Of a stretch of DNA of 64,000 nucleotides, positions 5,779 to 44,270 are shown piece after piece. A program made the translations under genes and the position numbers. The DNA comes from Candidatus Omnitrophota bacterium (GTDB lineage Bacteria > Omnitrophota > Gorgyraeia > 2-01-FULL-45-10), in the NCBI GenBank assembly GCA_017993955.1, contig JAGOLR010000002.1:26-64025 (forward strand). The letters run 5' to 3'. Position 1 is the first letter of the stretch. The number at the start of each line of letters is the position of its first letter. The notes under the pieces are model-generated. The model was not told where the DNA came from. It did not search any database and was given only the letters and a program-made list of their open reading frames with translations.

Positions 5779-5893
5779 CGTCAGGCGACGAAGCAATCTC
5801 TCTTTCGTCATTGCGAGGAATTATCGCTAAACTCATACGACGAAGCAATCTCTTTTTTAGATTGCTTCGGGCACTTCGTGCCCTCGCAATGAC
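5779..5893. repeat. nested-palindromic intergenic repeat element, copy 1 (a half-unit plus a full unit)
   Basis: cgtcaggcgacgaagcaatctctc + cgtcattgcgagga ... cgacgaagcaatct-cttttttt-agattgcttcg-ggcacttcgtgcc-ctcgcaatgac. Outer arms GTCATTGCGAGG/CCTCGCAATGAC; inner arms GACGAAGCAATCT/AGATTGCTTCG; central palindrome GGCAC-TTC-GTGCC. Confidence 0.85.
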
Positions 5894-5951
5894 AAACGAA
5901 AAATCCGGCTTTACAATAACAGGTTAAAATAGCACCCGGTACAAGAAGATG

Positions 5952-8900
5952 CTATGCCGCCCTAAGTATAAGTTTCACAAATTCTCTGTGCATCCTTATC
6001 TCTTCTTCGTAGTTTTTCGGGAGATTTTCCGGGAGATATTTAAATATATTCTTCTCTTCGTCTTTGGTAAGGTATGGAATGTTCCTCCAATAACCGCTCT
6101 GCGCGAAGAGTTCCAGTAATACTTCATAGCTATTCGTATCTACCGGACCGGCGAGCTCCAATTTTACCGCGTCGATCGACACTTCTTTCAATATCTCTTC
6201 GTAATCTTCTATCTCGCCTTCCCGCGCCCGGATACCGATATGCTTTATCCCTGATGCGCGCAATCCCGAAACTACCCCGTGCAGCTCTTCTTTTGTAACA
6301 GCGGTCACGTAAGGAGTAAGCCCCAGGGTATCTATATATCTTGCCACCTTGGCCTTATCGCTAGCCAGTTCCGGATCGGTGATAAGGACTATCTCTTTTA
6401 CCGGGTCATCATCTTTTGAAGAGACACCCTGCCTCTTCTGCCTTCCGGCTATCTTATCTCGCAGGGCATACATCATCTCGGCATCGAGGACTCCCTGCGT
6501 TGTGATAGAGACCGCTTTAGTCCTATCGCCGATTATGAAAGAATTAAGAAAAGCGCTTTCCGTATGGGCAAATTCTCTTGTATTGGCTATAGTCCTGGCA
6601 GCGATGGCCGGCTTAAGAGCTTCCAAGGAAGCCCTTACCGATTCTATATCCGCTGGAGAGACCGCAGGTATGGTCGCCGCGAGAGACTTTACTATATCTA
6701 CCATGCCCTCGACTGTCATGTATCTGAGACTTGAAGGATCCATGCTGTAAATATAGCCTTCATCGGGTGGATTGACATCTCTCTCTGTAGACATAAGATA
6801 TTCGCGCAAAGCCGGTATCGCCAACCCATACGGCAGATCGAGAACTACGCCGCGTCTTGCCCTCATCTTATATGCAAGATCCGAAAGCTTCGGATCTTCC
6901 GGGCTGTTGGTCTCTATCTCTACCAGGCTCACCCTTAATAACGGGAATGTGCTGTCTATGAAATTCCTTATGCCGTCCATGCCTTCGCCCGCTATGGTCC
7001 CGGAGGCTATACCGATTACTATATCGGCCCGCCCCGGCATCTTTCTCTGTATCTCTTCAAGGGCTTTTTGGGCCATCTCTCTTGACCGGGGTAGTTGAGC
7101 CTCTTCTTCTATATGCTCCAGGAGTCTATCTGCCAATCCGGATAATGTATATCTGGTATCATGGAAAGTTAATTCCCGCCCAAGAGACAGAGGATTCAAT
7201 GCGACATCTTGCAGAAAAGGGATAAAATATTTGGCTAGGTTTATTCTCTCGGCATCTACAATCTGATTGGATATATAGGACAAGGTAAGACCGGATATGG
7301 AGTTTTGCTCGCCGTTATACCGGACTTTTGTAGAGGAGGCTTCTTTGTCGTACACTATCTCCTTTAACATCTCGATAGAGCCCTGGGGGGAAAGATCCAT
7401 ATGCTGATACGTGGCAAATAATGCATAGACATTTACCGGCAATCTCGAAGTCTTGGATTGCATTATCCGGCCGGGCCTTGCGTGCAGTATTATATCCTTT
7501 ATAACTGGTAGCGAATACTTGTGAGGTATGCGATGTGGGTCTGAGAGGGCTGTTATTATATCTGCCGTGCGGGAGCGGCCGGTCTTTGGGTTAAAGGCAA
7601 GATCGTTGTATTCATTCATCACCTCCGCCCTCAGACTCTCGACCTTATGTGAATAATACAAATTCCTGAATATTACGAAGCTCGCCCATACAAAAAAGGC
7701 TACGCTTAAAAATGCCAGGATAGCTTCCGGCGCTATGATAAGCTTATCTGCGCCCCCGTGCAAAGGCATGATAAATATCCCGTGCGAAAGAGCGTTCTTT
7801 ATGGCCTTGCGCCAGGTCGGAAGACTCCCGGCTGCCTCCTCGAGTATCATCTCTGCTTTACGCCCCTCCACGTCTCTAGCCAACCTTATCTGGGCGCCGA
7901 CCCCGTCTGAGATCATAGAAAGGCCGTCATTTATCTCCCCCGACATAACCTCATCGGCGCATTCTCTCAGGGTAGTATATCTCAAATATTCTTTAAGCTC
8001 GCCGACCTTGTGGCTTTTTACCACCATGCTGACTTCGACCAATTTAAAGGTATCAAGTAGTGATATTATATAGAACAGGAACTTCCTGGAGTTTGCCCAT
8101 TCGCCGCATATACATACCTCTGCGCGGCTTGCCGGCGGCGCATGCCGGTTATAATCGTTAACACCATTAAAGGCATTGCGCACATTTCTCACAAATGCCG
8201 GGAAGAGGACATGGTATATCTTTTCAAGCCGCTCGTCGTCTCTTTCGTAGGCATCAGAAAAGCTCCTCTTTGACAGGTCGTTTGTGCCGATACTTATATA
8301 AGAGAATAGTCCTTCGCGCAATATCTCAGGTACGGCAGCGCACGCCGCGGGTGTTTCTATCATAGCCCCGAAACGGACCTTGTCGAGGTCGCTCTTGGCC
8401 AATCCTTCATCGACAAGTTCGGACTTGATTTTTGAGACCAGGTCTTTTAACATAGATGCCTGATCTTCATTCTCCACCATCGGGATAGTTATTCTTATAT
8501 TCTTTTTTTTGCTGGAGGCCGAGGCGCGCAAAAGAGCTCGTAGCTGGATCCTTATTATCTCCCGGCCCTTGATGTCCTCAAAATAGAACGGCACGCCGTA
8601 CAGAACCGGCCTTTCAGAAGTGACGTAACTGCGTCTTCCGCCTTCACCATCCACGGTGAACCCTACGGCGTCTGCTATGGAGACCATGTCTTTAAGCTTG
8701 TCCTTCTCCATGTCGAGAGTCCTGAAGGTGACCGGGCCCTCCACCGAATCTGCGGCCTTTAGGGCCTGAGCGTATATCTCGTCCTCGGTGGGTTCCACCT
8801 TCCGCATGTACATATTCTCCATCCTGATAAGCCCCACGCCTGCAGCCCCATAACCTTTAACCAGCGCAGCATCGGGCTCAATACGGGGTATGTCGGAGAG

Positions 8901-22923: not shown

Positions 22924-22972
22924 TCTTAAAAATATGACTTTTTTATATCTTAATTCACACCTCGTCATTGCG

Positions 22973-23108
22973 AGGAGCCGGTGCGTTTTTCGCTCTGTGA
23001 TATCTACTTACGTCATTGCGAGGAGCCATCGTTTTTTCGTCAGGCGATATCCCCCCGTCATTGCGAGGAGGCTGACTATCTCGCGTTGGCCGACGAAGCA
23101 ATCTCTCT
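22973..23108. repeat. repeat element cluster, copy 2: three CGTCATTGCGAGGAG half-sites plus one CGACGAAGCAATCTCTC half-site, abutting the stop codon of gene 3
   Basis: cgtcattgcgaggag at 22973, 23021 and 23057; cgacgaagcaatctctc at 23090-23106, 3 nt before the TAA (23110-23112). Confidence 0.8.
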
Positions 23109-26100: not shown

Positions 26101-29100
26101 CCTGTCGACATCGAATATACTGCACAGAAGCGCGGCAAGTCTCGCCTGGTCTTCTTCTGTTCCGCTGTATTTGCTCTTCTTTATACCCAAAAAATCGTAA
26201 GTGACATTGTCAGGCTCCGAGGTGTTCTTTACGTAACTATTGTAAAATCTGGCCTGTCTTCGGGCAAAGGTAGGTGAATATTGCCCGTCCGATATCATGA
26301 TAAACCATCTGTACGCGTCCCTTATCCTGCCGGACGCAAGATCCGCAAAAAGTTCATCGGATCTTCCTGTCGCTATGAAACGGTCATAGCGCCTTGCGAA
26401 CTCTTCCAGGTTGGCGTTTACCTCTTCGTAATAACGAAGGACCGATCTCTTTTCGTCTTCGGTCACATCGCCGCGCCATCCGCCGTCTTCGCCCTTCAGA
26501 CGTACAAGCGGCATGCCTTCCAGATCCACAAGCCACCCGTCCTCGTTCATCGCAGGTATCGCGTGGACCAGAAGCGCCCTTTGGGGCTTATTTAAAGCCC
26601 TCCAGAATGAAAGCCCTCTGACCCATTTCTGGGTCTCTTCATTCTTGTCCGCGCGCAGTTCGGGCAGGGCCGATACGATATCCCACGCCTTGCCGTGCCA
26701 TAATGTCCTGGCCCAGTTCCTAACTCCTTGCGCATTCAAGAACTGCCTCTTGAGGTCACTCAGTATATCCTCTTCTTCCTTGGTGAGTTCGCCGGACAAA
26801 TCCCTTATATACTCATCCACTCCGAGGGCCCTCAGGTCCTCTCCTTTTAAAACGCCTCTCTTTACGGCTACCTTAACCCATATATTGAATATCGCCTGCT
26901 CGGAGACCGAACTCATCCCTCTGTAGCCGACCGATTTTTTAACATCCTTTTCAACGGCGGATTCCTTTTCCAGTTTTTTCAATTTACCCAGAACGCTTTC
27001 GATTAGAGCGGTATTCAGATCCCTGTAAGATCTTGACAGGGCTTCTATAGCCTCTTTCTCTTCGGGCGCGAACTTATCGAGCTCCCCTAATGAGGCGTAA
27101 AACCTCTCCCAGTCACCGCCAAGTTTTTCGTTTACATATGCCGAAAGCCCCTTTAACCGCATATGGAGTTCCATGTTGCGCAATTTGCCGAGTTCGTAAC
27201 GGCCCTGGGCAAAATTCTCCAGTCGCTTCAGGTCTATGCCCATTGACTTCAGCGCTCTCTTCTGCCCGGGATAGCGCTCGAGCATCCATACATGCAGGGC
27301 TATCGAGTATTCATCCCCAAGCGAAGCTCCTAAGAACCACAGATCGTGATCGCCTAGTGTGAAGCGGTCCACAAGACTCATCATCTCTTCGAACTGACTG
27401 CCGCGGTCGAGTAGATCGCCGACGACCCATACATCGATGCCGGGATTACTCTTTGTAAGCCTGTCGAGAGAATCGGGTGAACCGTGAGTATCCGCGGATA
27501 TGAGCTTGCCGAAACCCGTACGTGATCTCGCCTTCTGCTCTTCCATGTCGTGCGCAAATAGCTCAAAGAGCTTCGTAAACCTGCCGCCGTCGTAAGTAGC
27601 GCGCCTCTCCGGAGTGACTCCCCCGTCTCTCCTGGTCATAAACTCGCCCGATACTATCACCGGGGCCTTGGTTCGGGACGCGATGAAGCTTTTGAACCCA
27701 TCGAGTTCCCCGGGCGTACCTATAGGACCGTAACGCCTGTTCCTTACATTCTCTTTATCGGAGCGTCCTTTTACAGGAGGGAATACGGTCATAGCATCAA
27801 GAACCTCTTTCGCGGTCTGGGCGGTGTCATTTACTATACAGTAAGTGAAGAGGTCCCCAAAATCACATCCAGTATGCTTCTCTATCTGTTCGTATATGTA
27901 TATGTAAGGGTTTATGCCGTTCTTCGCCCTCATGAAATCGGTTTCGTTATCATACATGGGATTGAATACGAATACGGCTATGGCGCCTCGCTCCCGCGCC
28001 CTTATTATGGCGTCGGTTATTCCTACGGGTAGCAGATCTACCAGGATACTGGTATAGAAACTCCCAGGACCTAGGACATAGAAATCTCCTTCGCCGAGGC
28101 TGTCTATCTCCTCTATGCATCTTTCATACGCCATAGGATATTCGCGGCGGTTCCCGAATGAAAGCTCAGATATCACCTTTTCATGGCGGGTATTAGTTAT
28201 TTCATCCTGGCCCACGATACTGGGGCTGCCGTCGGCAAAAGAGATAGACATCTCGCTGTCATTGAGATCTATGCTTGTGGGGAGCGCGACCATTACGTCC
28301 TCCACACCGGCTATATCGCGGCAAAACCTGTCTAGCCCGCGCTGGATACCTTCGGCCGAGAATATGCCTTTGCCGTATCCCTTCTCGAGGAGTATAGAGC
28401 CTAAAAGCGCCAGGTTCTGCACGGTATGATTGGCGAGAGGCATCCTGGGGAATAACCTGTCAACGGCCTGGGCGGATTCAAGGAGGTTTCTGGAGAAGTC
28501 GGACCAGCCCAAATCGCTTCTTAGCGTAGGGTCTTTCTCCCCTCTCTTCTGCTGATCTATCAATAGGCCCTCTACTATATCTGAGAACTTTCTACCCTTA
28601 CCGGCCAGTTCGTCTTTGCTGAACCTGTGGCCAAGTATCTCTTTTCTTTTACGGGGCCCGCGGTTTACAATAGCCTTGGCGATATCGCCTAAAGCCAGCG
28701 AATCTATATCGAGCTTATCCTTTAATAACCTCCGTATCTTCCCGGTACTCCTTCCCGCGTCGAAAGGCGTGATAGCCTTTCTGACAGACCAGCCGTATCC
28801 TCCGAAAGTATCGTCGAAGAACTGTATCCCCGCCCCTCCTCCGGATATAAGCACCTTCCTCTTCCTGGATGTACTGCCCCCCGTTATAGCGGGTAGGCTT
28901 GGGGGGGTCGCGGCTTCGGACTGACGCAGTATGGCGTTCCATATCTCTTCCGGGCTTTGCGCGGATTCTGATATATCTAAAGGCAGCGTCTCTTCCTTTT
29001 GAACCCCATCATCGTAAATAATAGCGGTCTTCTCCCCGGTCAAAATGGCCTGGCCGTAAGATATAGTCGCCCCGAGATCCACAGCCGAAGCTATACCTAA

Positions 29101-32100
29101 AAATAACGCTATGGCGGCAAGCCATCGGCCTAGATAAGACCTCTTCTCGATACGGCGCGGAGAGGCGCTACCGGGTCGTGCCTCTTCCATACCCGCAAGA
29201 AGCACATTATGCGCTTCCTCCAACTGCGGGGCCTCCATCATGCCATCCCTGAAGAATGACGACCCCGCCACAAATATATTGGCACCCGCAGTCAGCGCAC
29301 TCTTTATGGTATCGCCATTTATGCCTCCGTCTATTTCTATAGGCCCATCATAACCGTAATAGAACCTGAGGCGTCTTATATTGGACAAGGCTGAAGGTAT
29401 GAACTTTTGATTGCCAAGTCCCGGATGGACGCTCATCTGCAGGACGATATCTATATCCTGGCGGTGCTCCATTATAAATCTCCCGGCCGAGTCTATTTTT
29501 GTATTCGGATTAAGGGCAATACCCGCCATGGCTCCTCGGCTTTTTATATAACGTAAAAGCCTTAAAAGCTTGCCTTTGTCCTCGAAACCCTCCCAGTGGA
29601 GCGTCACTATACCGGCGCAATTATCAAGATATTTGGCTATGTAGCTTTTTGTAACGTTCTCGTCGGTATCCATAATGTGGAGATCAAAAAGAGGCGTGAC
29701 GCCGAGCTCGCGCCTGTGGCACTCGTCCAGAACATCTTTTAAGAACCGCGGCGTTATTTTGTCGGTCGTATCTTTGCCGCCTTTTTGCACTATCGCGTTA
29801 CCTCTGCCCCCGCTGTTATTTATGCGGTCAAGATGCACGATGGGCCTGCGGCCTTCTCCGGCGAAGATCTCTATGGCATCAACGGTACTTTTGACGCGCT
29901 CTCCGTCGGGTACATTCAATACCGAAGGCGATATCACGAATTCGTCTGCTACAAGCGACGCATGTAAAGGCAACACGTACAGATAATATACTACTGCCAA
30001 GAGCGGTATAAATATGAGCCAGATAGGATGTAAGAATACGCTGCTTAAGATCCCATCAGAAAATATATCCTGAGCGGCATCCTGTGCAAACGCCCGGCCC
30101 GGGAAAAGCATCGCGGCAGTTAATACTCCTATAGTCCCGAGAATATTACGTCTGTCAGTACCCCGTCCGGCTGGACGATATTGGGCCTGGACGTTTCCGG
30201 CCGGCCCCTCATCATCGAATGAGGCAGGCGAGCTACTTTTAACCTTTATCTCGCCATTCCTGTATTCGACATCGAATAGATTCATTATGCCGGCCCTATT
30301 GGGATCAAGTCTCATGTTATCCCAAGAGCTTACTATACGGGCTACCCCATTTTTACCGGCTACAGCGTTCTCCACGTCCTGCCATCGCCGCAGCACAAGC
30401 GATCTTGCCTTATGCGCCGGCAGTCCGGCCAACCTCAAAGCCTCCATGGCTTTTTTAGCGACCAGTATCTTCGCCGCATCCGAGTGGGAAAAGACGACGG
30501 GCAAGCGTTCAGGGCTAAAGCGATTATTTTCCGCAAACCACATCATCCCCCTGATATAGTTAGACCTGCTTCCGCTTCCTTGAGAGTTAAGGATAGATTT
30601 ATAATATGAGGAGCGGAATAAGGGCCATTTCCAGAAGTTCGTGTTCCACATTATTAGAAATGCCGTCAACGCTAGAGCCGCGATGGCAAGTTGCGGGTGG
30701 GTGGATACCTGCTCCCATATGGCGGATAATACGCCTTCGCCACTCTCTACAACAGCCCCCCTTGTCACATCTTCCGCAAAGACCGGTCCTGATGTAAAGA
30801 TAGCGGCAAGTAGCGCAAATATTAAGATCCGCATATGTGCGGCATAGCCATTTTGGCCTATTTGACGATCGTATCCGGACTTTGACACAGAATCGCTTCT
30901 TCTGCCGTAGTCTGGATCGAGATCCAGGTCCACAAGTGCCTCCGCTATGGCCTCGCCTCCTTCGACATGGGAAGGCGTATTATTTATATCCTCAGCCAGA
31001 GCCCCTTCTCCCTTAATGGCTATCATAGACCATGAGCCGTTATATTGAAGTCCGCGTATCATCGTGCTTCCCATGGATTCGAGAAGTTGACGGGCCTCCT
31101 CTACAACGGGATCAGTGAATTGCGTATTGCCCCAGCCGGCGAACCCGCCCTCGTCAGCTACCGCCAAAAGCACTATCTCGCCGTCGGGAATGCTATTCAT
31201 ATAATCGATGAACTCTATGAAACTCTCAACGTTGGCGCGATCGCCGCCGTAAGTATCGAAGTTCCTGGTCTCTTTCATTCTTATGCCGGTATTTCTATCA
31301 AGGATGGCTACATTGATACCGCGTCCGCCGGTGCCGCCACCGCCCCTAAAATATACCGTTTTTTCTCCTATGCCGAATGAGGCGTCGCCATGCGAAGTCG
31401 CCGTAAGTAACGGCCTGCTGTTAAGCGCCACGGCGGCTTGGCCTTTCGTAAATCTGTCCTTCAAAGCATTAAAAGCCTCTTTAGGATTGCCGTCTATATC
31501 GGCAACCCCGAAATATTCTTCGTCGTTACGACCATCGGGTTGTCCGGAGTTGTTCTCACCGCTGGTATCCTGATGGTTCGGGAACCCCAGCTTCCACCAT
31601 TCATCACGCAATTCAAAGACAAGCCCTCCTATGGCTGTGCCGGCGGTCCTCTCGGCGGAAAGCTCGAAAAATATCTCGTCCCAGAGCCATCCGTTCACCT
31701 CTGCCTGCATGGCCTCATTTTCGTCTGGTATCCTGTGGTCAAAGGAGTCTGCCCCGAATTCAGATATAAAGATCGGCTTGTCCGATATGGAGCGCCATTG
31801 TTGGAACACGTCTTCCATGCTTGTACCCCGGTATATACTAAGACCCCAGACATCTACGCTCGGAACGAGCGTATTTACAATATCGGTGGTATATGCGTAA
31901 CCGTTCATCTCTAACGGGAATTCTTCCGGGCTTAATACGTGGTAACCCGGCACATGCGGGTCTGCGAATACAGTAGATACCGGGTGGTTATTATCTATCG
32001 ACTTTATAAGTTGCGCGGCCCTCTCGGTGAAATCGGCAGCATCGAGGCCGGATGCGAATTTTCCGTAGTAGTAATTGATATCCCATTCATTTCCTATAGC

Positions 32101-35100
32101 CCACATAAGAATGGCCGGATGGTCCTTGTAAGCCTCCACTACCCTTCTAACATTATCCATATCGGCCACTACCCCGTATCGGGGAGAATCTACGGCCATG
32201 ATGAGCTTTATGCCCATCCTGTAGAAAGCGTCCAGTATCTCGAAGGCCTCGGGACCGGTCCCAAAATCGTAATAAACTCTCGCGACATTTACGCCCATCC
32301 TCGACATGAGCGAAAGGTCGGCTTTGTACCATTTATAAAATTCCTGGGTTATTGTCGATACGGGCGCGCCCTTGGTGTGAGGCGACCAGTTGACCCCGCG
32401 CGCGACAAATGAATATTCCCCGCCCAGAGTGCCGTCCGGGAGCCTCTCCCGCACGAATAAACGCCTGTCATGCTCTTCTGCGTAAGCCAGGCTCGGAGAC
32501 CTTGGCACCGGCGGCAGCGTCTCGAGCATTATATATCCCGCGAATTGCGATACAAGGCCTGCCCTGTCTTTCGCCTGACACAATATCTCCTTTATACCGT
32601 CACCTTCTGAAAGGGTCATCGCCTTTGAAGTAACGGGTGTCTCCCATGATGTCCAGTTCTCCCCGCCATCCAGAGAGAACCTCAAAGCGCTCAAACCCGA
32701 ACCGGAATCCCGAGCGTTTATATTGACGGTGACACTCCTTGAATCGGTGGTCTCTTCACCGCCGTTTATCGTCAAAACGCCGGTGGGCGGTATCGTATCC
32801 AGGCGTATATCAAAGCTGTATTCTGCCCTCCCGCCCGAGGAATTGGTCTCGACTATAACGCGGGTATTGAGCCCTTCCGAAAGCTGGAAAACAGTCTGTC
32901 TGGGCTCTCCGTCTACCGTATAATCCACAGTAAGCACAGGCGAAGTCGTTATCTCCGGTATCTGGCTCATGATAGCTATGACGGGGTTTATCACGTTAGG
33001 TTTATTACAACCTGTCTGCCCGAGCAGGGCTGGCAAACCCAGGGATGCCAACATAATATTTACAAATGTCCTGCGTGAAGTAAGGCCGCTATCAGAGACG
33101 CTACCGGCTTTACCGATCTCTACAAAAAGTCCGGGCCATATGACTTTCTCTATCGTCCGTCTTACCTTATTCAATATGGCCGCATCTTTAGACGGAGCGT
33201 TTTGAGGCTCCGCGATACCGGCCGCCTCGGCAACCTCATCCAATATGATGACAGTCTTATCTTTAAGCTCTCCCGGGAATCTCGCTTCCAGGGTGGCTTG
33301 CAATCCTTTGTTTACGAATATTATTACGGCAGCCTCTCGCACCTCTTCCAGCGTAGCGGGCCTTGAATCTACTTTCACCGGCTCCTCGCCGAACTCTTGA
33401 CGGAACGCCTCCGCAAGAGGAGCATTTGTAGCCCCCCAACCGAGCTCGCTTTGATCGCCGGCCGCGCCGGAGCTCACCTTCATATATCTAGACAGTTCAT
33501 TTTTATTTATGAGATGGTTAAGGACCATCTGCATGGCGGGACTTCTGTTGTAATTAGAATTACAAACGCATAGTATGGGACCGGCCGGTCTAACCCACTT
33601 GGACTCGGTTTCGGCTACATAGCCCACTCTATCTGTAATACCGTTATTCTCTTCTACAGAAAAAGTATGCTCGTCAATAAAAGCCTTCTCCTCACCGGAT
33701 CCGGCGAGCGCCCAGATGTCAGCCGTTTCGATCTCAGGCGACATGGGCTTTATGCCTTCGGCGACCTCCCACGCGGTATTAGAAAAGGTGGCTTCCTTGG
33801 CTACAAGGTGGCGCATCCTAAGCGACAACTCTATGAGACCGTAACCTTTAGAGGCAGATCTGGACGAACTCGAGGCGTCTGCAATATATTGATAGATAAT
33901 AACCCCGATCAGAACCGCCAGAAAGACGCTAACCCCGAAGATGACATAATGATTAAATGTAAAATTTTTGAGTGCCGCAAATGAAAGATTTAAGATCACC
34001 GGCTGGACGGATTCCGTAAACGGTCCCGCGGCTTGCGCTGAAGCCGAGCCGGCGATAAATACCGCGGTTAAGAACGCGATCATTGGAGCAAGGCCTCGTA
34101 AATTACCCGAACTTCCGGCATCTTTTCTTTCCGCCGGGGCGTTGGCGATGGCTTTGAAGCCTTTCAACGCATCATCAACCATAGGTCTTAGTCTCGGATC
34201 CAGCTTGGCCGCATGCCTAAGATCTCTTTCGCCCTCGTCTTCCATATTAATAGCAAAATATAAAAGTCCCCTGTTATAATATGCGTTTGCAAAGTTAGGA
34301 TCGATCTTTATGGCTTTATTAAAATCATACAGCGCGAGACCTAGTAGGCCTGGCCCTTGCACGTAACTAAAACCACGGTTATTATAAGTAGATGCTTCGA
34401 TCTCATTCTCGGGGCTCAACTCAATAACCTTCGTCAGATCCTGAATAGCCCTAGGATAATCCCTTAATATGTCAAAGTATATACTACCCCTCATCTTGTA
34501 CGCATTAACATAACCTGGGTCTATGCTTATAGCGCGGGAAAAGTCTCGTAATGACTCCGGATACCTGCCCGCCACAAAATAACATGTCCCCCTATTATTG
34601 TAAGCATCGGGATTGTTGGGATTAAATTCTATAATTTTGGTAAAGTTATATATAGCTTTTGGATGATCCAGACCTAAGATGCCGCATGCAGCCACAAGAT
34701 TTTTATAAGCGGTATCGTTCCGGCCATTGAGTTCTAATGACTTGATAAAGTCTGATATCGCTCCAGGCACTCTGCCCAGCGCTAAATGGCATATTCCTCG
34801 TAAATTGTACGCTAGATCAAAATCCGGATTATGTTCTATGGCTTTATTAAGCGCGGTTAAAGCGTCATTATATCTATCTTGCTCGAAAGCCCTTTCTCCC
34901 TGCGTATAATATTTTGTGGCTTCGCTGATCCGGGCCGCGATATCACCTGCGTTCTCTTTGACATCCACATCGCCCGCTCGATGGCTGGGCAATATGCTGA
35001 ATAAACCGGATATTGCAAGAAATATAACCGCTAACCGCATCATAACTTTCATGGCAATCTTCTTTGATCTTGTGGCGCGATCTTCCTGATATACCACCCC

Positions 35101-38100
35101 GGAATTGTCAGCCAAGATATAACTTAATATTCGCCATGTTATGTAAGATGGTACCAATGCGGCAATTACTAATAAAAACGTTCTGGGAGTCACTGAAAAC
35201 CACGAGAAGTTGAATGCTTCTGACCCGCTTTGCGCAAATGCCGAGCCGGAGGCGAGCATGGCGGCGAGGAAGATGCCGAGCGTGCCTGTTATACCCGGGC
35301 TTTTTCCTTGCGGAGATTCGGGTTTCTCCGCAGTAGCCGTTTCCTCTTGGGGAGCATCCTTGATCTCTTCTTCGGCTCCTTCGGCCGGAACCCAATATCC
35401 CGCAGAACTTCCTCCGCCACTATAAGCGTCAAAGTACCCAGAATCGCTGTAGTCAGAATATCCGGTGTCGTTGTTGTTATCTTCGTACGAATTCCGTACT
35501 AGATCTTCATGATGAAGCCAATTTTTCCCACCGGTAATGCCGGCCATTAAGAAAAAGGTGGCGATGACAGGAAGCATCATTAAACAAGCGCTAAGAAAAC
35601 CGGGGAAGATTCCGATTATGTAGCTGAAAACTACCTCGAATCCGCTATGCGAAGTTTGAAGAGACGTGGCGCAGGCGATTGTGAAGTTAATTACCAAAAA
35701 TAATAGCGATGGCAACAATCCCAGACACATAGCAAGATCATTGCGTTCCGAGTCATGCGGCCTGCGTGAATATAGGCCAGCGATTACCCCTGTTATGGCC
35801 GGTACAACAAACATGAAAGTTATAAACGGATGCGATGATATCGCAAAATAAAAAGTTGATAATATTTTAGTTGCGCCGATATTTGTCGCGATACCGTCTG
35901 CCCATGCGCCGCTGGAGGCGAGCATGGCGACGAGGAGTATGTCGAGTTTGCCGGCCGTGCCCGGCCCATTCTTAGTCGTCCCTCGTCCTTCGTCCCTCAT
36001 CCCTCGATCTTCCATACCGTTCTGGGGAACGTCCCCGGCCTTGTTTCGCTTTTGCCCTTTCACTACATTAAGAACGGCGGGGGCATCTGTTATCGTTACA
36101 GTAGTTGAACCATATGAATTACCATAAGCGTCATACTCTTCCTGTTCTTCTTCGTGAGTTTTTGCCGGTACATATTCTACAGTAAAATCATACCCATTCT
36201 TCAAGCATTCCTTAATAACGTCCATCTGAGATGACGTAATATTCGCATCGTTGCCATCAAGAACATTAAGGGTATTCAGAATGCTTTTTACCAAGCCCGG
36301 GTCCGAAACCCTTTTAACGGCTTCCGCTATACGTTCTTTCTCGTACCCAACCCCCCATTGATTATGAACCTTATCGCTTTCTATCCTCTCCAATGCTCCT
36401 ACAACATAATCCGGCATTGTGCTGTCTATAAGCTCCTGCAGATCATGTCCCATAGATACGAGAATAGAAGCGCACACATCGCTTTCAAGAGCTTTAATCG
36501 CAGCGGCGCGAAAACTGGTTCTAAGATGAATGATGCATTTTTCAGTAATGCGTGTACGTAATTCGACTAATAAGCCATCATCGGCTCCAAGTTTTTTTGC
36601 CGCATCTATGATTGGTTTTTCCACATCACTATATAACCCATTAGCAAAGTTACCATGATCTATATACTGCTCCAGTAATGAGATAGCTCGCGGATCGCCG
36701 AAATTACCGAGCTCTACGACTACCTCCTCAGCAACATATCCGGAGGTGTAGTATTTCAACAATACATCCTTATGAAGCTGGAACAATTCTTCCCGCGTGG
36801 CGCCAAGATCTTGATACGCCCTTATCAATGCCCTGTACACAAAACTGCTCCCGGATTCGGCAAGCGGAGACAAAAGTTTCATGACAGACTTATCACCAGA
36901 TTGCCCCAAAACCTCTACTGAAGCTGCTAGTCTATCTCCCTCAACTGAACGCCAATTTTTAACAAGCCTAAGCGCCTGAGGATGGGATATTTTTTCGCCT
37001 GACCTTGGCATCCCGATATCTTTACGTGCAGTTTTATTCGCAAGTCCGGGTTTTTCGCCAGAAGATGCCTCCGATACAGGCTTTTCCATTCGAGAAACTT
37101 CTCCTACGCTTCTTTTAAAAGCGTTTCCCATAACGATATTTAACAAAGAAAGTCCCGCCAGAGGTAGCCAGAAGCCCGAACAGTAAGAAAAATATTCGGT
37201 CGCGAGAACTGTTAGGAATAGATATGCGGTCAGGCCCAAAAACTTATGATCTCTGAAATAGGAGACGGCTTTAAGCATTACCCTGGAAAGAGTCGGACGG
37301 TAATTATCTAGATATCCATACGCAAAGCTCGCTACGATTACCCCGAAGCTGACCGGATGAAAAGGCGCCATTAAAAATACAACTGCCGGGACGCCAACTT
37401 TGGCAGGATTTATATCGCGCTTAAATACCTTCTTTGCTATGAGCCATATAATGGCGCTCGCCAAAAAGACTATGGCTGTAACGATTATGCCATCTATGAA
37501 AAGCTGTCCTAAACTTAAAAGTGGCGCACCGTAAGGTGTGACCTGTATCGGGAGCGTGCCGGTAGGACCTGCCGGAAGAGGCATATGCCCTCCCATGGAA
37601 GGACCTCCGAAATACGACGGTTGCGCAGCTGCCAATCCGGACGCGAGCATGGCGGCGAGGCCGCCTAACAGGAAAGGAATAAAAGAATGCGCCCGCAAGG
37701 ATGGTGTGGACCGGCGACCTCTGGTCTCGAGCCATTTTTTGAGTGCTTCTATCTCTGAGAGACGCCATCTCTTCTTAGCCTCAACCTTAGCTGCGTCGCC
37801 TTTTATCTCTTCCCATCTGGCGAATTGGGCATCTACAAAAAGGTCCTCGCCTAAAACCCTGTAGTTATCTAAAGGCGGCAACGTACGCCTGAATATATCC
37901 ACGCCTGAAATAGGAATCGCTCCCGAATATGCGGTAAGTTTTCTCCTTATGACCTGGGCCATCGGTAGTTTCTCGCCCCTCGCCGCCTTTTTCAGTGTTT
38001 CAAGCCCCACCACTTCGTAATTGGCCTCAAGCCCCGGAGCGATCTCTTTGGCGGTTACCTTAAGCTTGGATGATGCAATGCGGGTGAACTCCTTTTCCCC

Positions 38101-41100
38101 ATCCACGACTACTACTATATCTATATCGTTAGGGCTATCGGACCATGCGTAACTACCCATCAGATATATAGAAACCAGGGGCTTATCCGCGGAAATCATC
38201 CCATTCTCGTATAGGGTAGCGACGACGGCCGGGATCTTGGATCGGATAATTTGTATTTTTGAAACGGCCTTATCGGTCTTATCTTTGCTGTCGGCAATAC
38301 TATGCCACATCCAGCTCCTGGTCTTAAGGATATCGGCAATGGACCTGATGCTCCGTATTACCATTCCTTCGCGCGACAGGTCTAAAGTCCCCGCGTCCAG
38401 TTCCCAAGGAGCTACATCCGGTGCGTATTCGGGAGCGAGCCTTCCCGTACGTATGGCTTCGGCCACACGGTCATGCACTGCCTCAGGCAGCGAAGACGCT
38501 CCGCCCAACCTGAGCACAAGCTGCGCAGGTTTATCAAGCACAGTATTGCTATACTGCATTGGGCTACCGTACACATCATAATATTCCTCTTCCTCCTCAT
38601 GTGTACTGGGCGGGATATATTCGGCCCTGACAGCCTGGGCCGCCTCTATGAAAGATGTTACGAGCTCTATTTGCTGCAAGGTCATAACCGCATAATCGTC
38701 ACTATAACCGTATGTGCGCGAACCTTCCTTGACATGCGAAAGATACGGGACCATAGAAGCAAGGAGCGGGTTGCTTATGGCAATAAGAGACCCGGCACTC
38801 GCAGACCTGACCCTGCTATCGGTGTCGCCCACCCCACTTAACAATGGTATGACCGAACGCTCATCTTTTATCTTTCCTAAAGACGCCGCGGCGGCGGCGC
38901 GGTCTAACCGGGAGGATTTATCGGCCAATATGGCTATAAGCGGCTCCGCAGCGCGGATGTCGCCGGATTCGCCTAGCGCCGTTACGGCTGCGTTGGCTAC
39001 ACCTTTATCGGGGTCGGTAAGCGCGTCATTGATAAGCTCAAACGCGGATCGATCCTTTATCGCGCCTAAAGTCTGCACAGCTGATTTACGTGTATTGGCA
39101 TCCTCATCAGAGAGTAGAGTCTTTAATGCCGGTATAGCCGGTGCCCCCACTTCACCCAGCTTATTCCAGTCACCGGTAGCGACCGCATACGCTATCTCTT
39201 CACCTTTATTTACGGGTTTCCATTCCAATTTTTTCAGCGAATCCGCCGCTATCCTGCGGTTAACGGTATCCGAATCTGACAGGGCTACTACTAGGGCAGG
39301 GGCGGCTTTCTTGTCCCCTATGGCGCCTAATGCCTCTGCAGTTTTACCGCGGACCGCCTTTGACGGGTCCTGGATTAAAGGCTCTAACGCCTTAACTGCT
39401 GTGGAAGCTTTTACCCTGCCGAGTATGGTCGCCGCGCCGGCGCGTATATGCTCATCCGCGTTCTTCAAAGCGGCAATAAGGAGCGTCTCCCTGCGAGGAT
39501 CCTGAATATTGATTATCGCGGTGACAACCGTCTGATGTAATTCAACCTCTGCCAATAAACCGATAAGGCTTTCCAGGGCGCGCGGATCCTTTATCTTCCC
39601 AAGCGCCTCCGCGGCCGATTTCCTTACGCCCTCTGCCGGATCTTTCAGTAATCCTACGAGGGGGATAACAGCCCGCGAATCGCCTATCTCGCCCAGCGAC
39701 CATGCCGCGAGCTGCCTCTTATACTCGTTCTGCGCCGCAAAACATTTTATGAGGTCCTGGACAGCCGGCACATCTATATTGGCCAGAGCTTCGGCAGAAG
39801 CCCGCCTTATCGCGTGTTCCCGGGAATCAAGATTCGATATCAATGCGGCAATAGCCCTCACTTCTTTGATCTTACCTAAAACACGCGAAGATGAAACTAC
39901 AACCTCTTTATTCCGGCTTGAGAGCCCGGCCAATAAACGCGGGGTAGCGCGCGTTCCGAGTAATACAAGCGCCTCTTCCGCCCTCGCAGGAACTCCGTAT
40001 TCATAACTCCCAAGCCGCCACATATGCCAGCGCACAGGGAAAAATAAACGCCATATGATAAAGAACGCGGCGGTACCCAGCGCCAACCCTGCCATCGACG
40101 CGACAACCACGAATCCCAAAGGATGCGCTGCAAAAAGCTCATGGATGATTGATGATAATGTCTTTGTGCCAAAATTTGATGTGCTTTCGCCTGCAAACGC
40201 CGAAGCTGAGGCGAGCATGGCGGCGGTCGTGGCGATAAGAAGAACAGGAAGTTTCGTCGTTCGCGATTTGCCATCGACTTCTTCAGCAAATCGTCCCGAG
40301 CGAAGCGAGGGATCTTGTTCGTAGTTCGTATTTCGGATAATATTAGAAGTATCCTCAAAAAGCCGGTCGATTCCGGAATCTATAGTTCTAATTTCATCGA
40401 TCGCTTTCTCCATATCGCCTTCCCCACCCTGCATTATCCGAGTAAGGTTTTCGACGGCCGTTTTCCGCGCTCCATCTAATCTATCCAGTTCGGTTCCGTC
40501 TATCAAGGCAGGCATATTCTCATACGTTCTATCAAGCAGCGGGACCTGATCAATAACCGCTTCAGCAGGCACTGTGGTATTCGGTGGATAGGTGTCTAGT
40601 CCTGTTTTTTCCGAGTTGGGGACCGCAGAGCCTTCGCCTTTTTTAAGAAACGGCTTAACATTAATAGATAAAACTGACTGTACAAGCCAGTCGCTTCGGT
40701 AAGGATATGACGCATACTCTTTCCTGTCCGGATCCCAAACATAGATCACGGCGCGGCGCCCATCTACGGTCGCAATAAGACTGCCATCGCCGATAGGATA
40801 CGAATTCTGGAGCCAGTCAACTACATAATTATCTCCGTTGACAAACGGCAATCCCGAGAAATCATATATCTTCGCCACTTTATAATCTTTATCCAGGAGA
40901 ATTACGCGGCCGTTCTGGCTATCGGACAGGATATATCCTCCGTTATAATAGATCGCCCCATGCGGTTTATTAAGGTCTTTCAATACAATGCGCGTCCGAC
41001 CCGTAGCCTTCTCTATCTCGATAAGCTGGCCCGGATCAAAAAGAGTGGCCATTATAGTATTCCCATCACGGCCGTAATCGGCCCAGTTCGGACCTGCGCC

Positions 41101-42948
41101 ATAGAAAGCTCTTTCCAGGCCGACCGGCGAATCGACCTTACTTATATCTATGACAACACGGTAGTCCTGCCCGGGCTTTAGATCTTCTCTGACCTTATTC
41201 TCAAATCTCCTAATATATTCTTCCCTTGATAGCACTGTAGTATCCGAAAAACCCGCGATAGGCCGGTCTTTTTCGGTAAGCGTCATGCCGAATTTATTCT
41301 TGCCATACCCGTTCTCCCATGCCAGCCATTCGTAAACTACATTTCCTGATACGATATCTACTTCGAGAATACGGTCCAAGCCGGTGCTAGCAACCAATAT
41401 TAATCCTGGATCGGCAGGATGAAACTTAACCGTGTGTAACAGTTTAAATTCCGGGTTCCTGATGCGTTTTTTAATCTCTTTTGTAGATGTATCGATAATG
41501 ATTATCTCTTCCGAAAAGACTACGGCTATGACGTCATCGCGTACGGCGATATCCCTCGGCTCAACGCCGGATATCTCCCATAGACTTCTGGAGGTCTCCG
41601 CGATATCGTTTACAGTCATAATAAATAAAGAGGTGGGCTCGCTTATCGGCCTTGCTGGCTCGTAAAGCTTACCCGTATCTTTATGTATCCCGATCCTTCT
41701 TGCCTTAAGTTCCGGCGAATTAACGCCTTTCACGACAAAAGCTACCGGAATATTACCGCCAAGGCCACTGACTTCCTTAAAGTCATCGGCAATGCGGACC
41801 ACGGTAGGCTGCGCGGTGGATACGCTGTCGTCCGTTTTTATCTGAGAAAATGAACGCGACGCCATAAGCGGTAGCCCCAAGAATAAGAAAGCCAAAAGAC
41901 CACCTATACCTGCCCCTAAAAATACGCTTATAACTAAGGTCATCACAAATTTGACCGACCACATATCTATACCGGTTACCCCCTCAGCAAATGCCGGCAA
42001 GGCCACGAGCATCATAATTAAAGAGGAAGCGATTATCTTCCGAATACTTATAGTCTTTTCTGGAGCTAATTGGTGGCTTACTTGGGCTATGGGTTCGGAG
42101 ATTGTGACTTGCTTATCGTCTGTTAGATTGCTTCGTCGTTCCGCCTCCGGCGGAACTCCTCGCAATGACGGACTAGACGTCTCGCGTCTTACGTCTAACG
42201 TCTCACCTCTTACGTCTTGCGTCTTGCGATCTTCAACAGTCGTCTCTCTCGATTTGCCATCGGCTTCTTCAGCAAACCGTCCCGAGTGAAGCGAGGGATC
42301 TCCTTCATCCCCCATCTCTCGTTCTTCCACAGACGTCTCACGTCTTACGTCTAACGTCTCACGTTCTTCCACGGACCCCGCCACAGACGTCTTACGTCTT
42401 GCGTCTTGCGTCTCACGTTCGTCATAATCCTCCGGCAGGACCTTCACTGCGTACTTGTCCCCGATCACCCAGTCGTATCCTGCAAGCTCCCTTATAGCGA
42501 GATTATCTTTCTCGGAGATATATATGAGAGACTTCTTGCCATCCGGCGGGTTGTAAAGCATGGTGATAACGCCGTCTTTAAACCTTACATGGGAAAGGTC
42601 GATGCCGTATAGCGCCCTGTATGTCTTAAGGCGCCTAAAAAGAGCTCCTTCGATATGCTGTTCCGGGAGCTGCCCTATCTTGTGAAGATCGTCGCCCATC
42701 AGGTATTTGGCGATGTCGTATATAGCTACTACAAGCCCCCTCTCCGCGAGCACCGATGCCTGAAGTTCAGCGGCGAATTCGTTGACCGGCTGAGTCTGGC
42801 CTACCGATGGAAGCGCCAAGGTCGAGGCGGAAGGCTGGCGCGGCGTGCCGTCTTCCGGATGCGCCCAACTGATATCAAGAGAGAGAAAAGCGGCGATGAG
42901 AATGATGGAGATGACTTTAATAGCGAAGTGGGAACGGAAATTGATCAT
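23110..42948 (-). CDS. giant (6612 aa) signal-peptide-bearing modular protein; enzyme and scaffold modules separated by TM hairpins with internal signal-peptide-like segments: beta-propeller-like region, HEAT, nucleotidyltransferase-like, TPR, LMW-PTP-like, Ig-like plus clan GH-A glycosidase, ILEI/PANDER-like, ribulose-phosphate 3-epimerase, CofD/YvcK, class III FBPase-like metallophosphatase, 2H phosphoesterase
   Basis: Uninterrupted 19.8-kb ORF from ATG 42948-42946, with AAGGGGG SD 6 nt upstream, to TAA 23112-23110. N-terminus [31 protein letters not shown]. Domain coordinates were checked by back-translating [10 protein letters not shown] at 29413-29442. Confidence 0.9.
   Translation of the reverse strand: [6612 protein letters not shown]
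24304..24741 (-). other. 2H phosphoesterase (LigT-like) domain
   Basis: Two HxT/Sx motifs about 130 aa apart: SEHITLSDL and KAHVTLGYL. Confidence 0.45.
27049..27576 (-). other. metallophosphoesterase of the class III fructose-1,6-bisphosphatase (Bacillus Fbp-like) type
   Basis: [49 protein letters not shown] compared with Fbp [45 protein letters not shown] (GDxxDRG ... GNHD/GDHD ... LWxGA). Confidence 0.55.
27934..28866 (-). other. CofD/YvcK (UPF0052, LPPG:FO 2-phospho-L-lactate transferase / gluconeogenesis-factor family) domain
   Basis: [14 protein letters not shown] (compare vvlGGGtGlsxLLrGL); [15 protein letters not shown] (compare vtvaDDGGSsGrLRr); [26 protein letters not shown] (compare iiGPGSlyTSilPnLlvpgi.eAl). 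Confidence 0.65.
29239..29931 (-). other. ribulose-phosphate 3-epimerase domain
   Basis: DLHIMD (compare DVHLMV); [28 protein letters not shown] (compare VLVMSVNPGFGGQKFIPSxLxKIRxLR); [30 protein letters not shown] (compare IEVDGGIN...AGANxxVAGSAIF). Confidence 0.8.
31114..31356 (-). other. ILEI/PANDER (FAM3)-like GG domain
   Basis: [67 protein letters not shown] matches the GRGINV...FDTY...SIPDG.IVL.AV.DE pattern of the ILEI domain. Confidence 0.4.
31459..32826 (-). other. Ig-like (Big-type) domain followed by a clan GH-A (GH5/GH2-like) glycoside hydrolase TIM barrel
   Basis: Ig-like: [58 protein letters not shown]. GH-A: acid/base [10 protein letters not shown] (NE) and nucleophile IFISEFG (xSEFG). 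Confidence 0.5.
33229..33591 (-). other. low-molecular-weight protein-tyrosine-phosphatase / ArsC-like module (CX5R P-loop)
   Basis: [19 protein letters not shown] compared with the LMW-PTP signature V-C-L-G-N-I-C-R-S-P-M-A-E (C-X5-R-S-P). Confidence 0.4.
34174..34926 (-). other. TPR repeat array
   Basis: Repeated 34-aa units with AY.N.G......G....A..D..KA....P consensus ([14 protein letters not shown]..., [14 protein letters not shown]..., [14 protein letters not shown]...). Confidence 0.75.
38749..39861 (-). other. HEAT repeats (PBS-lyase type)
   Basis: Repeated AxALGxIGDxRAxxPLIxLLxDxxxxVRxxAAxAL units, e.g. [44 protein letters not shown]. Confidence 0.7.
42125..42171. repeat. copy of the intergenic palindromic repeat element embedded in frame in the coding sequence of gene 3 (encodes [17 protein letters not shown], aa 259-275)
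   Basis: agattgcttcg-tcg-ttccgcctccggcggaa-ctcctcgcaatgacgg: the same arms as the intergenic copies, with central palindrome TTCCGCC-TCC-GGCGGAA. Confidence 0.8.
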
Positions 42949-43015: not shown

Positions 43016-43104
43016 CTTCGTCATTGCGAGGAGCTATTGCTAGACTCAGGCGACGAAGCAATCTATTTTTTAGATTGCTTCGGCCCTTCGGGCCTCGCAA
43101 TGAC
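43016..43104. repeat. nested-palindromic repeat element, copy 3 (full unit)
   Basis: cgtcattgcgaggag-ctattgctagactcagg-cgacgaagcaatct-attttttt-agattgcttcg-gcccttcgggc-ctcgcaatgac. Confidence 0.85.
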
Positions 43105-43134
43105 AAATAAGAAATCGTATTACTCAATAACAAT

Positions 43135-43428
43135 TCAGAGTATAGTATTGTAAAGATCTTTGAAGTCCGGATTCGACTTCTTAATCAATGCTAACTTATC
43201 GGCCCGTGAACCGCCCTTTATTTTCTTCTCCCGCTCTATAGCATCTTTAATGCTATCAAATATCTCATAATGAATAAGCTTCGTAATGTTGTATTTCTTG
43301 GTGAAGCCTTCTACTGATTTTTCCTTATGTTCGTAAACACGTTTTACCAAATCACTCGTTACCCCTGCATAGATAGCTCTGTTCGTTTTATTGGTCATCA
43401 GATATACATATCCGCGCTTATCTTGCAC
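43135..43428 (-). CDS. GIY-YIG nuclease superfamily protein (small URI-domain endonuclease, COG2827-like), 97 aa
   Basis: MQDKRGYVYLMTNKTNRAIYAGVTSDLVKRVYEHKEK...KLIHYEIF...AIEREKKIKGGSRADKLALI shows the GIY/YIG, R, E and hYxE signature blocks typical of the family. GTG start at 43428-43426 (an internal ATG at residue 11 is an alternative); TGA stop at 43137-43135. Confidence 0.85.
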   Translation of the reverse strand: MQDKRGYVYLMTNKTNRAIYAGVTSDLVKRVYEHKEKSVEGFTKKYNITKLIHYEIFDSIKDAIEREKKIKGGSRADKLALIKKSNPDFKDLYNTIL

Positions 43429-43444
43429 TTTAATTCTTTCTTTT

Positions 43445-43489
43445 AGATTGCTTCGTCCTTCTCACTTCGCTCGAAGTCCTCGCAATGAC
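43445..43489. repeat. partial repeat element, copy 4 (right half), 17 nt upstream of the GIY-YIG start
   Basis: agattgcttcg-tccttctcacttcgctcgaagtc-ctcgcaatgac; the central cttcgctcgaag is itself palindromic. Confidence 0.75.
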
Positions 43490-43568
43490 AGGCTGAATTT
43501 TGTCATTTGTCATTGTTAACCCCGCTTTGCGCATTACGTTTTACGCTTCCGCTAGTCTTTATAAATCT

Positions 43569-43613: not shown

Positions 43614-43760
43614 GAGTAGATACAATTTTTGCTACTCTGACGTTTTAGCTTACACCTATGCATATTAGTTTCATTTTTTATCAAATTCTACTATATAATT
43701 TATCACAGCTACTGCTTTAAATCAATGCAAGTCCTTCTGTCTTTTTTCTCCCTAACCTGT

Positions 43761-43849
43761 TGTCATTACGAGGAGCTATCGCCAAACTCAGGCGACGAAG
43801 CAATCTCTTTTTTTAGATTGCTTCGGGCACTTCGTGCCCTCGCAATGAC
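43761..43849. repeat. nested-palindromic repeat element, copy 5 (full unit)
   Basis: tgtcattacgaggag-ctatcgccaaactcagg-cgacgaagcaatct-cttttttt-agattgcttcg-ggcacttcgtgcc-ctcgcaatgac. Confidence 0.85.
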
Positions 43850-44150
43850 GCAGATGCGATTCTTTCGAACCTCTCACTTTACGCTTTTCGCTTTATCCCA
43901 CCGCGACATCCAGAAGAATGGGGCGGGATTCCACCTCGCCCTTAAAAGATTGTGATAGCGGAAAAAGCCCGTCCTCGCTCCTAAGGGAGCCGCTTGGCAG
44001 AGCCCCCAAAGAAGCGAAGACGGATACCCTCGCTTACGCTTTACAATGGCGGAAGCGGGGTGGGGTAATATCGTCGTTCATAGATCGTAGTTCGTTAAAG
44101 AACGGATAATTTCATTAATTGTCTATCGTTAAAGAACAGCTAATACCGTC

Positions 44151-44270
44151 CGTCATTGCGAGGAACCATCTTTTTATTTCATGTGACGAAGCAATCTCTT
44201 TTTTTAGATTGCTTCGGGCACTTCGTGCCCTCGCAATGACGAAAGAATAATTTCGTGCCCTCGCAATGAC
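44151..44270. repeat. nested-palindromic repeat element, copy 6 (full unit with a duplicated right arm), ending 13 nt from the stop of gene 4
   Basis: cgtcattgcgaggaa...gtgacgaagcaatct-cttttttt-agattgcttcg-ggcacttcgtgcc-ctcgcaatgac-gaaagaataattt-cgtgccctcgcaatgac. Confidence 0.85.

Follow-up and report, generated by a model that had tools for sequence, protein, structure and literature searches.

Hairpin repeats beside a small GIY-YIG nuclease gene in a Candidatus Omnitrophota giant-gene array are probable Ssn-related motifs

The closest described counterpart of the locus studied here comes from Neisseria meningitidis, whose SsnA, at 94 aa, comprises a single GIY-YIG domain (Chenal et al. 2025, Nat Commun 16:2388; PMC11893778). 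SsnA binds the NTS repeat (CGTCATTCCCGCGMAVGCGGGAATCYRG), written CGTC-ATTCCCGCG-MAV-GCGGGAAT-C-YRG, as single-stranded DNA (ssDNA) only and cuts a few nucleotides upstream of it, whereas it is inactive on RNA (PMC11893778). For cleavage by SsnA, the three bases preceding the palindrome on its 5' side count most, and for binding, the C that directly follows it on the 3' side; many bacteria have ssnA homologues with related hairpins, termed Ssn-related motifs (SRMs), on their flanks (PMC11893778). We analyzed a stretch of 64,000 nucleotides from a Candidatus Omnitrophota bacterium (contig JAGOLR010000002.1; hereafter, the window), in which a family of hairpin repeats occupies the gaps of an array of giant genes and lies on both sides of a gene for a 97-aa GIY-YIG protein.

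Sequence comparison makes it very probable that these repeats are SRMs, that is, the cognate hairpin sites of an Ssn-family single-domain GIY-YIG nuclease encoded at 43135..43428 on the minus strand. The repeats and the gene together are a new example of the system known since 2025 and not a new kind of element. The new aspects are the phylum (Omnitrophica), a motif subclass that lies outside the published pattern, palindromic pairs of units without a gene, and one copy that is in frame within an open reading frame (ORF). The Ssn/SRM system, whose characterisation comes chiefly from Neisseria and a small number of Proteobacteria, now extends to an uncultured Omnitrophica genome.

The ssn-like gene and its product

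The gene (43135..43428, minus strand, GTG start) is situated in a 1.3-kb gap between two giant genes, with repeat units on both sides. Residues 6-76 of its 97-aa product are covered by the Pfam family PF01541 (GIY-YIG; E 1.4e-16), the sole Pfam family found at E ≤ 0.01. When two Neisseria gonorrhoeae chromosomes were searched by tblastn with this protein, the E values were 5e-20 and 1e-19, well below the tblastn E < 1e-10 by which ssn relatives were defined in the original study (PMC11893778). The matched gonococcal ORF encodes 94 aa, with Y6, Y17, and E64, and is located amid nine canonical NTS repeats. In a pairwise comparison, the window protein and this SsnA orthologue share 44% identity over 90 residues without a gap (E 4e-32), and Y9, Y20, and E67 of the window protein align with the catalytic Y6, Y17, and E64 of SsnA. 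By its length, its homology to SsnA, and its catalytic residues, the product is a putative member of the Ssn nuclease family, which CDD entry cd10448 delimits. The two gonococcal chromosomes used (NZ_CP119140.1 and NZ_CP119142.1; 2.17 Mb each) stand as plasmids in PLSDB, and the ssnA orthologue is unannotated in the examined region of NZ_CP119140.1.

Database searches returned 2,742 relatives of the window protein. One entry is 100% identical ('GIY-YIG nuclease family protein [Candidatus Omnitrophica bacterium]', on a 73.8-kb contig), and relatives with 60-78% identity are labelled Omnitrophota, Elusimicrobia, Thermodesulfovibrio, Candidatus Harrisonbacteria, and Nanoarchaeota. The public annotation is 87 aa long and begins at Met11, without the first catalytic tyrosine (Y9). 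The GTG at 43428 is the better start, because the 97-aa form aligns end to end with SsnA, whereas the 87-aa form loses Y9. The exact 97-aa form has no database record. A sequence search of the PDB with the window protein gave distant UPF0213 relatives only (E 0.014), and a search of NCBIfam gave only a weak sub-threshold match.

A sequence-only reading of this DNA had called the repeats REP-like, after the repetitive extragenic palindromes (REPs). The comparison is apt in that a small nuclease gene goes with the oriented hairpins, much as RAYT transposases go with REPs; the partner gene itself had been overlooked. Both here and in the system of RAYT and REPs or bacterial interspersed mosaic elements (BIMEs), short oriented extragenic hairpins occur in many copies and inverted pairs, and the gene of a cognate enzyme, single-strand-specific in REP/RAYT and predicted to be so here, is flanked by the repeats. 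The Ssn authors themselves liken their system to REP/RAYT (PMC11893778). Unlike in REP/RAYT, which is IS200/IS605-like, the repeat-flanked gene encodes a GIY-YIG nuclease and not an HUH/Y1 transposase; we saw no Y1 or HUH transposase among the listed ORFs of the window, although no search was aimed at transposases. The head of a REP is GTAG, unlike the GTC of the window motif.

The repeat unit, its hairpin, and the published pattern

The sequence-only reading had described a pair of repeat arms at seven places, and these arms are present at all seven far above expectation: GTCATTGCGAGG, with at most one mismatch, has 14 matches in the 64-kb window (0.26 expected), and GACGAAGCAATCT has nine (0.08 expected). 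All of these matches are confined to the seven places. The enrichment is for 64 kb; for SRMs the yardstick is tens to hundreds of copies over a whole genome. The same reading had counted seven copies of about 90 bp; the places are real, but the full palindrome of about 90 bp is found at only four of them. The basic repeat is an oriented unit of 32-47 nt, built as arm A, spacer, and arm B, that occurs in either orientation; its length falls within the 20-50 nt of SRM hairpins. Its consensus is (Y)GTC-ATTGC-GA, an inner hairpin that varies and frequently has a GNA triloop, and GAA-GCAAT-C, and in the window it reads GTCATTGCGAG…CGAAGCAATC(T). Short (S) units consist of GTCATTGCGAG, a G+C hairpin with a GAA loop, and CGAAGCAATC, and long (L) units consist of GTCATTGCGAGGAGC, about 15 nt, and GCGACGAAGCAATC. 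In total, the window contains 12 intact units, all reading GTC-ATTGC…GCAAT-C, and three that are decayed or partial.

The nested palindrome of about 85-90 bp, which we call a composite, is a convergent pair made of an L unit, a T-run of 6-10 nt, and an inverted S unit. There are four composites, with the L unit on the plus strand and the S unit on the minus strand in each. The leftmost (5807-5893) joins an L unit at 5807..5851 to an S unit at 5859..5893, which reads GTCATTGCGAG-GGCAC GAA GTGCC-CGAAGCAATCT and folds as ssDNA with -9.2 kcal/mol (z = -3.8). Downstream of the ssn gene, the composite at 43020-43104 comprises an L unit (43020..43064) and an S unit with the inner hairpin GGCCC-GAA-GGGCC (43072..43104), the latter 30 nt from the ssn stop codon. 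The other two are 43762-43849 (L unit 43762..43806, whose arm GTCATTACGAGG has a G in a related strain; S unit 43815..43849) and 44152-44240 (L unit 44152..44197; S unit 44206..44240). Pairwise identity among the four composites, spacers included, is 68-97%.

The remaining units stand outside the composites. A single L unit at 43445..43489 on the minus strand has the same sense as the ssn gene and lies 17 nt upstream of its start, the usual upstream end of an ssn cassette (see below). To the left of the first composite, a degenerate L unit (GTTATTGCTAGG...GACGAAGCAATCT) occupies 5753..5799 (plus strand), between the stop of giant gene 1 and the start of the leftmost giant ORF. At 22964-23104, three L units of the same sense are arranged in tandem on the plus strand. 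Two of them (22964..23055, starting at 22964 and 23012; repeat family D20) have a decayed 3' arm, arm B, in which …GATATC… replaces GACGAAGCAATC, and the intact third (23057..23104) ends 5 nt from the stop codon of the ORF 23110..42948. On the minus strand, a duplicated 5' half of an S unit (GTCATTGCGAGGGCACGAA; 44250..44270; repeat family D7) ends 12 nt from the stop codon of the ORF 44283..63974. The sequence-only reading had put these two distances at 3 and 13 nt, close to our values. The last unit, at 42125..42169, lies within a giant ORF and is discussed with it.

As ssDNA, the S units of the window fold with -8 to -9 kcal/mol (z -2.1 to -3.8) into the clamp, a small internal loop, and the inner hairpin. 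This design is conserved well beyond the window. Across all retrieved loci we collected 279 distinct inner sequences, 187 of them S-type, and 139 of the 187 have a Watson-Crick stem of 2 bp or more anchored at their ends, compared with about 16 in shuffled sequences. These 139 use 51 different stem sequences, with GAA, GCA, and GTA as the commonest triloops, and the outer stem also has compensated variants (ACTGC/GCAGT, ATCGC/GCGAT, and ATTAC/GTAAT). Sequence is thus conserved in the clamp and the GA/GAA loop, whereas the inner stem keeps only its structure. The most frequent unit overall is GTCATTGCGAG-CGAAG-CGAAGCAATC, with the core GCGAAGC; GCGNAGC, of which GCGAAGC is the classic form, is known as an exceptionally stable DNA mini-hairpin (PMC13037366).

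In common with the NTS/SsnA pair, the window shows a protein of about 95 aa with a single GIY-YIG domain and the conserved Tyr, Tyr, and Glu, a gene bracketed on both sides by oriented hairpin repeats, and, within its 64 kb, many dispersed copies that are mainly intergenic and often form inverted pairs. The motifs also agree. Window units read CGTC-ATTGC…GCAAT-C, and the frame CGTC-ATT…AAT-C, followed by Y-R/M-G, is common to them and the Neisseria NTS/SRM repeats; of 172 units in other genomes, 94% have C or T at position -1, and their 3' flank reads Y-M-G. Unlike the NTS, which forms one perfect 9-bp stem, the window unit has a bipartite stem, in which a 5-bp ATTGC/GCAAT clamp is followed by a free inner hairpin, and between the two there is a conserved internal loop, GA/GAA or GAGGA/GACGAA. 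The setting differs from that in Neisseria as well, as the host is Candidatus Omnitrophica, the repeats stand beside giant genes, and one unit is in frame inside an ORF.

Several results weigh against classing the units as SRMs. The published search pattern, HGTCWYN(0-2)YYVSBRHN(0-5)WNVSBRGN(0-2)RNCYNB (PMC11893778), detected nine sites in the gonococcal control but none of the window units (its one match in the window is unrelated) and no site in 203 kb of 80 related loci that are described below. Under the operational definition of the authors, the window units are not SRMs. In addition, the L units of the window composites fold poorly alone (z -1.1 to +0.9), and the whole composite as ssDNA folds back preferentially with arm on arm (-27 to -29 kcal/mol), a structure that would hide the single-unit hairpins or compete with them. 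The pattern misses the units because their stem of clamp, loop, and hairpin breaks its assumption of a perfect stem. We file the element as an SRM on the homology of the partner protein, the architecture of gene and repeats, and the common frame, and not on the operational pattern. A literature search with the motif sequence strings gave primer coincidences only. Surveys by the published pattern may undercount SRMs if the subclass with the ATTGC clamp, GA/GAA loop, and variable hairpin is as common as our scans suggest (at least 120 matches). The subclass also offers naturally varied substrates for learning what Ssn reads, clamp and loop or inner stem, and could be useful for the ssDNA tools toward which work on the enzyme family is directed.

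The same fold-backs are very stable on either strand (z -6 to -8, with DNA parameters), and this stability, together with the units placed 5 and 12 nt after two stop codons, would suit REP-like RNA elements, i.e., hairpins at mRNA 3' ends that stop transcription or block 3' exonucleases. The sequence-only reading had proposed such a terminator or mRNA-stabilizer role, which we find improbable. The T-run is located in the loop of the composite and not after it, and within 42900-44350 no unit carries a hairpin followed by a T-run; elsewhere there is one such site against 1.0 expected. A terminator and promoter scan of the 42900-44350 cluster found sites no more often than chance. Rfam gave no match at the gathering score in the whole window and none at E ≤ 1 in 42900-44300, and a scan for tRNA and tmRNA found nothing. 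Moreover, the units bracket ssn genes whatever the neighbouring genes are, and they also occur upstream of genes and inside an ORF. Finally, the Neisseria SsnA ignores RNA (PMC11893778).

Paired hairpins beside large genes have a further parallel in Neisseria. Repeats there cluster around large surface-protein genes, which is comparable with the giant-gene setting of the window, and the neisserial intergenic mosaic elements (NIMEs), segments bounded by dRS3, likewise enclose a short spacer between convergent hairpins beside such genes. In the gonococcal locus, the +/- NTS pairs are 50-125 nt apart. Unlike in NIMEs, only 6-10 nt (the T-run) separate the paired units of the window, so that the whole element becomes one long palindrome. 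A convergent pair of one L and one S unit presents one unit in recognisable sense per DNA strand.

Gene and repeats in other genomes

To relate the repeats to the gene outside the window, we used 80 metagenomic loci encoding relatives 52-71% identical to the window protein and a loose unit pattern (GTC, any 5-mer, GA, …, GAA, and the complement of the 5-mer). The loci contain 152 units, compared with 0.2 in shuffled sequences, and 148 of these have the ATTGC clamp. The association with the gene is tight. Within 50 bp of it there are 44 units of the same sense upstream and 40 antisense units downstream; where a locus has room on both sides (64 loci), the gene has units on each side in 36 cases and on one side or more in 50. 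Fully bracketed cassettes number 29; in these, the start codon follows the end of the upstream unit by 1-15 nt, the stop codon precedes the inverted unit by 4-15 nt, and the GTC ends point outward.

Other genomes show this arrangement too. In Thermodesulfovibrio hydrogeniphilus the gene is bracketed likewise, with ATTGC/GCAAT and compensated ACTGC/GCAGT units; a Planctomycetota contig has an ssn gene and units in a like arrangement, and Planktothrix and Sinorhizobium have the bracketed arrangement with other clamp sequences. The Planktothrix nuclease gene is located between an MmeI-type restriction-modification gene and DISARM drmA. A plasmid of Planktothrix agardhii (L005 1190-1270 and 1830-2040) carries tandem duplications of the 5' half of the unit and its upstream flank with a 22-30 nt period, and 44222-44270 of the window is a similar tandem duplication of a 5' half.

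The exact motif GTCATTGCGAG-N3-33-CGAAGCAATC has at least 120 matches in species-representative genomes. Among the matches listed are Alpha- and Gammaproteobacteria, Bacteroidota, Chloroflexota, Cyanobacteria, Patescibacteria, Zixibacteria, Planctomycetota, Desulfobacterota, Firmicutes, and Campylobacterota, at least 10 phyla. An ssn gene is present in only two of the 120 genome loci among the matches listed, which fits many dispersed sites and few genes per genome. The motif also occurs in at least 120 viral contigs of IMG/VR, which may be true phages or host fragments, some of them with 4-6 copies (e.g., L221, L242, and L252). On a further IMG/VR contig (L227), an open frame that precedes a phage capsid domain contains one unit. 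A count of units in long open frames elsewhere (39 of 193) was dropped as an overestimate, since spot checks found mostly stop-free intergenic stretches that link two genes in G+C-rich genomes. Dispersed pairs elsewhere are convergent in 43 cases and divergent in five, with gaps of 20-32 nt that often read CAG…CTG; the convergent ones have the same design as the window composites but a longer spacer.

If the Omnitrophica protein acts like the Neisseria enzyme, from which we propose the following steps, it would bind the folded unit on ssDNA exposed in replication, transformation, conjugation, or repair and cut a few nucleotides 5' of GTC, with no action on duplex DNA or RNA. A convergent pair would then provide one cleavable site per strand. 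Possible outcomes are that the nuclease limits or shapes how ssDNA, incoming or exposed, recombines near the flanked genes and that the repeats themselves spread.

The last outcome bears on an extension of the SRM reading, in which the composites are non-autonomous mobile elements, namely gene-less, internally deleted derivatives of minimal selfish cassettes (unit, ssn, and inverted unit) whose spread to new sites would rely on Ssn provided in trans. Full cassettes are bounded by inverted units with the GTC ends outward, and dispersed copies elsewhere are mostly convergent pairs, as counted above. The unit classes point the same way. From upstream to downstream, 14 cassettes are L-S, 10 are S-S, three are L-L, and two are S-L, and one L and one S unit make up 29 of the 43 convergent pairs and all three scored window pairs. 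On pSymB of Sinorhizobium meliloti (L327 161-322 and 446-812), a unit, a short leader, the last ~95 nt of ssn, and an inverted unit stand beside a full cassette. The 68-97% identity of the window composites, which includes their spacers, and the spread over many phyla of the motif and of proteins with 60-78% identity are also compatible with mobility.

The opposing evidence makes us regard this extension as possible but doubtful. The 78 convergent pairs have no target-site duplication, we found no empty site, and a lone GIY-YIG nuclease is not known to have strand-transfer activity. The deletion intermediate of S. meliloti is a single case and belongs to a different motif subclass, and remnants of ssn were sought in the other gaps of the window and none was found. 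Through the 87-aa form of the protein we obtained two contigs, one from Logan (3.9 kb) and one from ENA (17 kb), the latter from a strain 99.65% identical over 17 kb; no copy was gained or lost between the two strains, and thus there is no signal of mobility at that scale. The sequence-only reading had suggested miniature inverted-repeat transposable elements (MITEs), and in its classical form this idea fails, as target-site duplications in the convergent pairs are not above a re-paired control and the related strain has the same copies. Like MITEs, the composites measure about 90 bp, have terminal inverted repeats, occur in several near-identical copies, and have a plausible gene-bearing parent; unlike MITEs, they lack target-site duplications, a transposase, and insertion polymorphism between the two strains. 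Convergent pairs and the deleted cassette suggest how an autonomous cassette could give rise to dispersed repeats, a route open to testing.

Giant genes and the repeats within them

Four large minus-strand ORFs occupy the window. Three encode 5,635, 6,612, and 6,563 aa, and the fourth runs past the left edge, starting near 5645 and encoding at least 1,880 aa within 1-5650. All three gaps between them contain units, which agrees with the sequence-only reading that every gap holds copies. That reading had also taken all copies to be intergenic, which is incorrect for one of them. The single L unit at 42125..42169 (minus strand; inner hairpin TTCCGCC-GGA-GGCGGAA) lies in frame within the giant ORF 23110..42948, where it encodes the peptide SPSLRGVPPEAERRSNL. 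The coding frame around it has no stop in 117 codons, compared with 7 and 11 stops in the other two frames of the same strand. Units of this kind are probably the source of some peptide stretches that look odd or spurious in predicted proteins; …SLRG…RRSNL… is an example from the window.

Palindromic repeats within genes have a precedent in the Rickettsia palindromic elements (RPEs), which Ogata and colleagues are said to have reported in 2000 as inserted in frame in protein genes. The likeness is that of a palindromic repeat that sits within coding sequence without breaking the frame; the window differs in that its in-frame repeats number just one intact unit and two relics. Rickettsia is itself named among the SRM-rich genera (PMC11893778).

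The two relics belong to a second SRM-like subclass (GTCCCGAGCGAAGCGAGGGATC). One is at 40293..40314, within a 67-nt repeat (40254-40320), and the other, with one mismatch, is at 42279..42300, within a further copy of that repeat (42240-42306). Both are on the plus strand inside the giant ORF 23110..42948, antisense to it, and their in-frame peptide is DPSLRSGRFAEE. They resemble the subclass GTC-ATCCC-GA-GCGNAGC-GA-GGGAT-C, which is intact in L221, L231, L135, and L182, but are without its 'AT'.

The ORF 23110..42948 (6,612 aa) resembles a chain of modules that open with a signal-peptide-like hydrophobic stretch (…AAMLASGSAFA…). At the DNA level, this segment corresponds to eight copies of a 40-nt repeat, at 25195, 30082, 30772, 34033, 35230, 35896, 37621, and 40189. 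The ORF has the look of a fusion in which many genes for secreted proteins came to share a single frame.

A further explanation, already raised by the sequence-only reading, is that the repeats are recombination substrates, in which near-identical border repeats of 45-90 bp drive shuffling, duplication, and fusion of the paralogous giant genes. The units in every gap of the array are as this explanation would have them. Further, three SRM-type relics are in frame in the ORF 23110..42948, and two of them stand just before the recurrent (8x) signal-peptide-like segments, as if they were absorbed spacers. As a sign of recombination or fusion, the in-frame relics are suggestive only. There is no rearrangement between the two available strains, relics are found at only 2 of about 9 module borders, and the repeats are not specific to giant genes, being found in ordinary contexts in many phyla. 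Recombination would in any case be a by-product of the repeats and not their identity, and as an account of what the repeats are we consider it improbable. The in-frame copies nevertheless hint at how giant genes may be assembled.

A more far-reaching scenario, which we consider unlikely, would combine mobility with fusion. A selfish cassette of ~400 bp (hairpin, ssn, and inverted hairpin) would have left gene-less pairs, spread via ssDNA without target duplication, and crossed at least 10 phyla as well as viruses. In the Omnitrophica lineage, spacers would have been absorbed in frame as linkers when secreted-protein genes fused, and the units within ORFs would be fossil gene borders.

Two minor features accompany the repeats. 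Between two of the composites, a G+C-rich spacer of 300 nt (43850-44150, minus strand) has an RNA fold of -103 kcal/mol (z -3.0), better than shuffled sequences; it matches neither Rfam nor the tRNA and tmRNA models and contains no convincing ORF. Tandem arrays with a period of 7 (ACGTCTN, CAAATTA, TTTGTCA, and CTTTACG) adjoin the GTC side of several window units and are located at 42177-42225, 42333-42364, 42387-42418, 42975-43000, 43499-43514, and 43877-43895. The idea that such arrays are a cleavage scar was rejected as not general, as they occur at 2 of 560 unit flanks elsewhere. Three of the arrays read in frame in the giant ORF (RETLDVRRET…).

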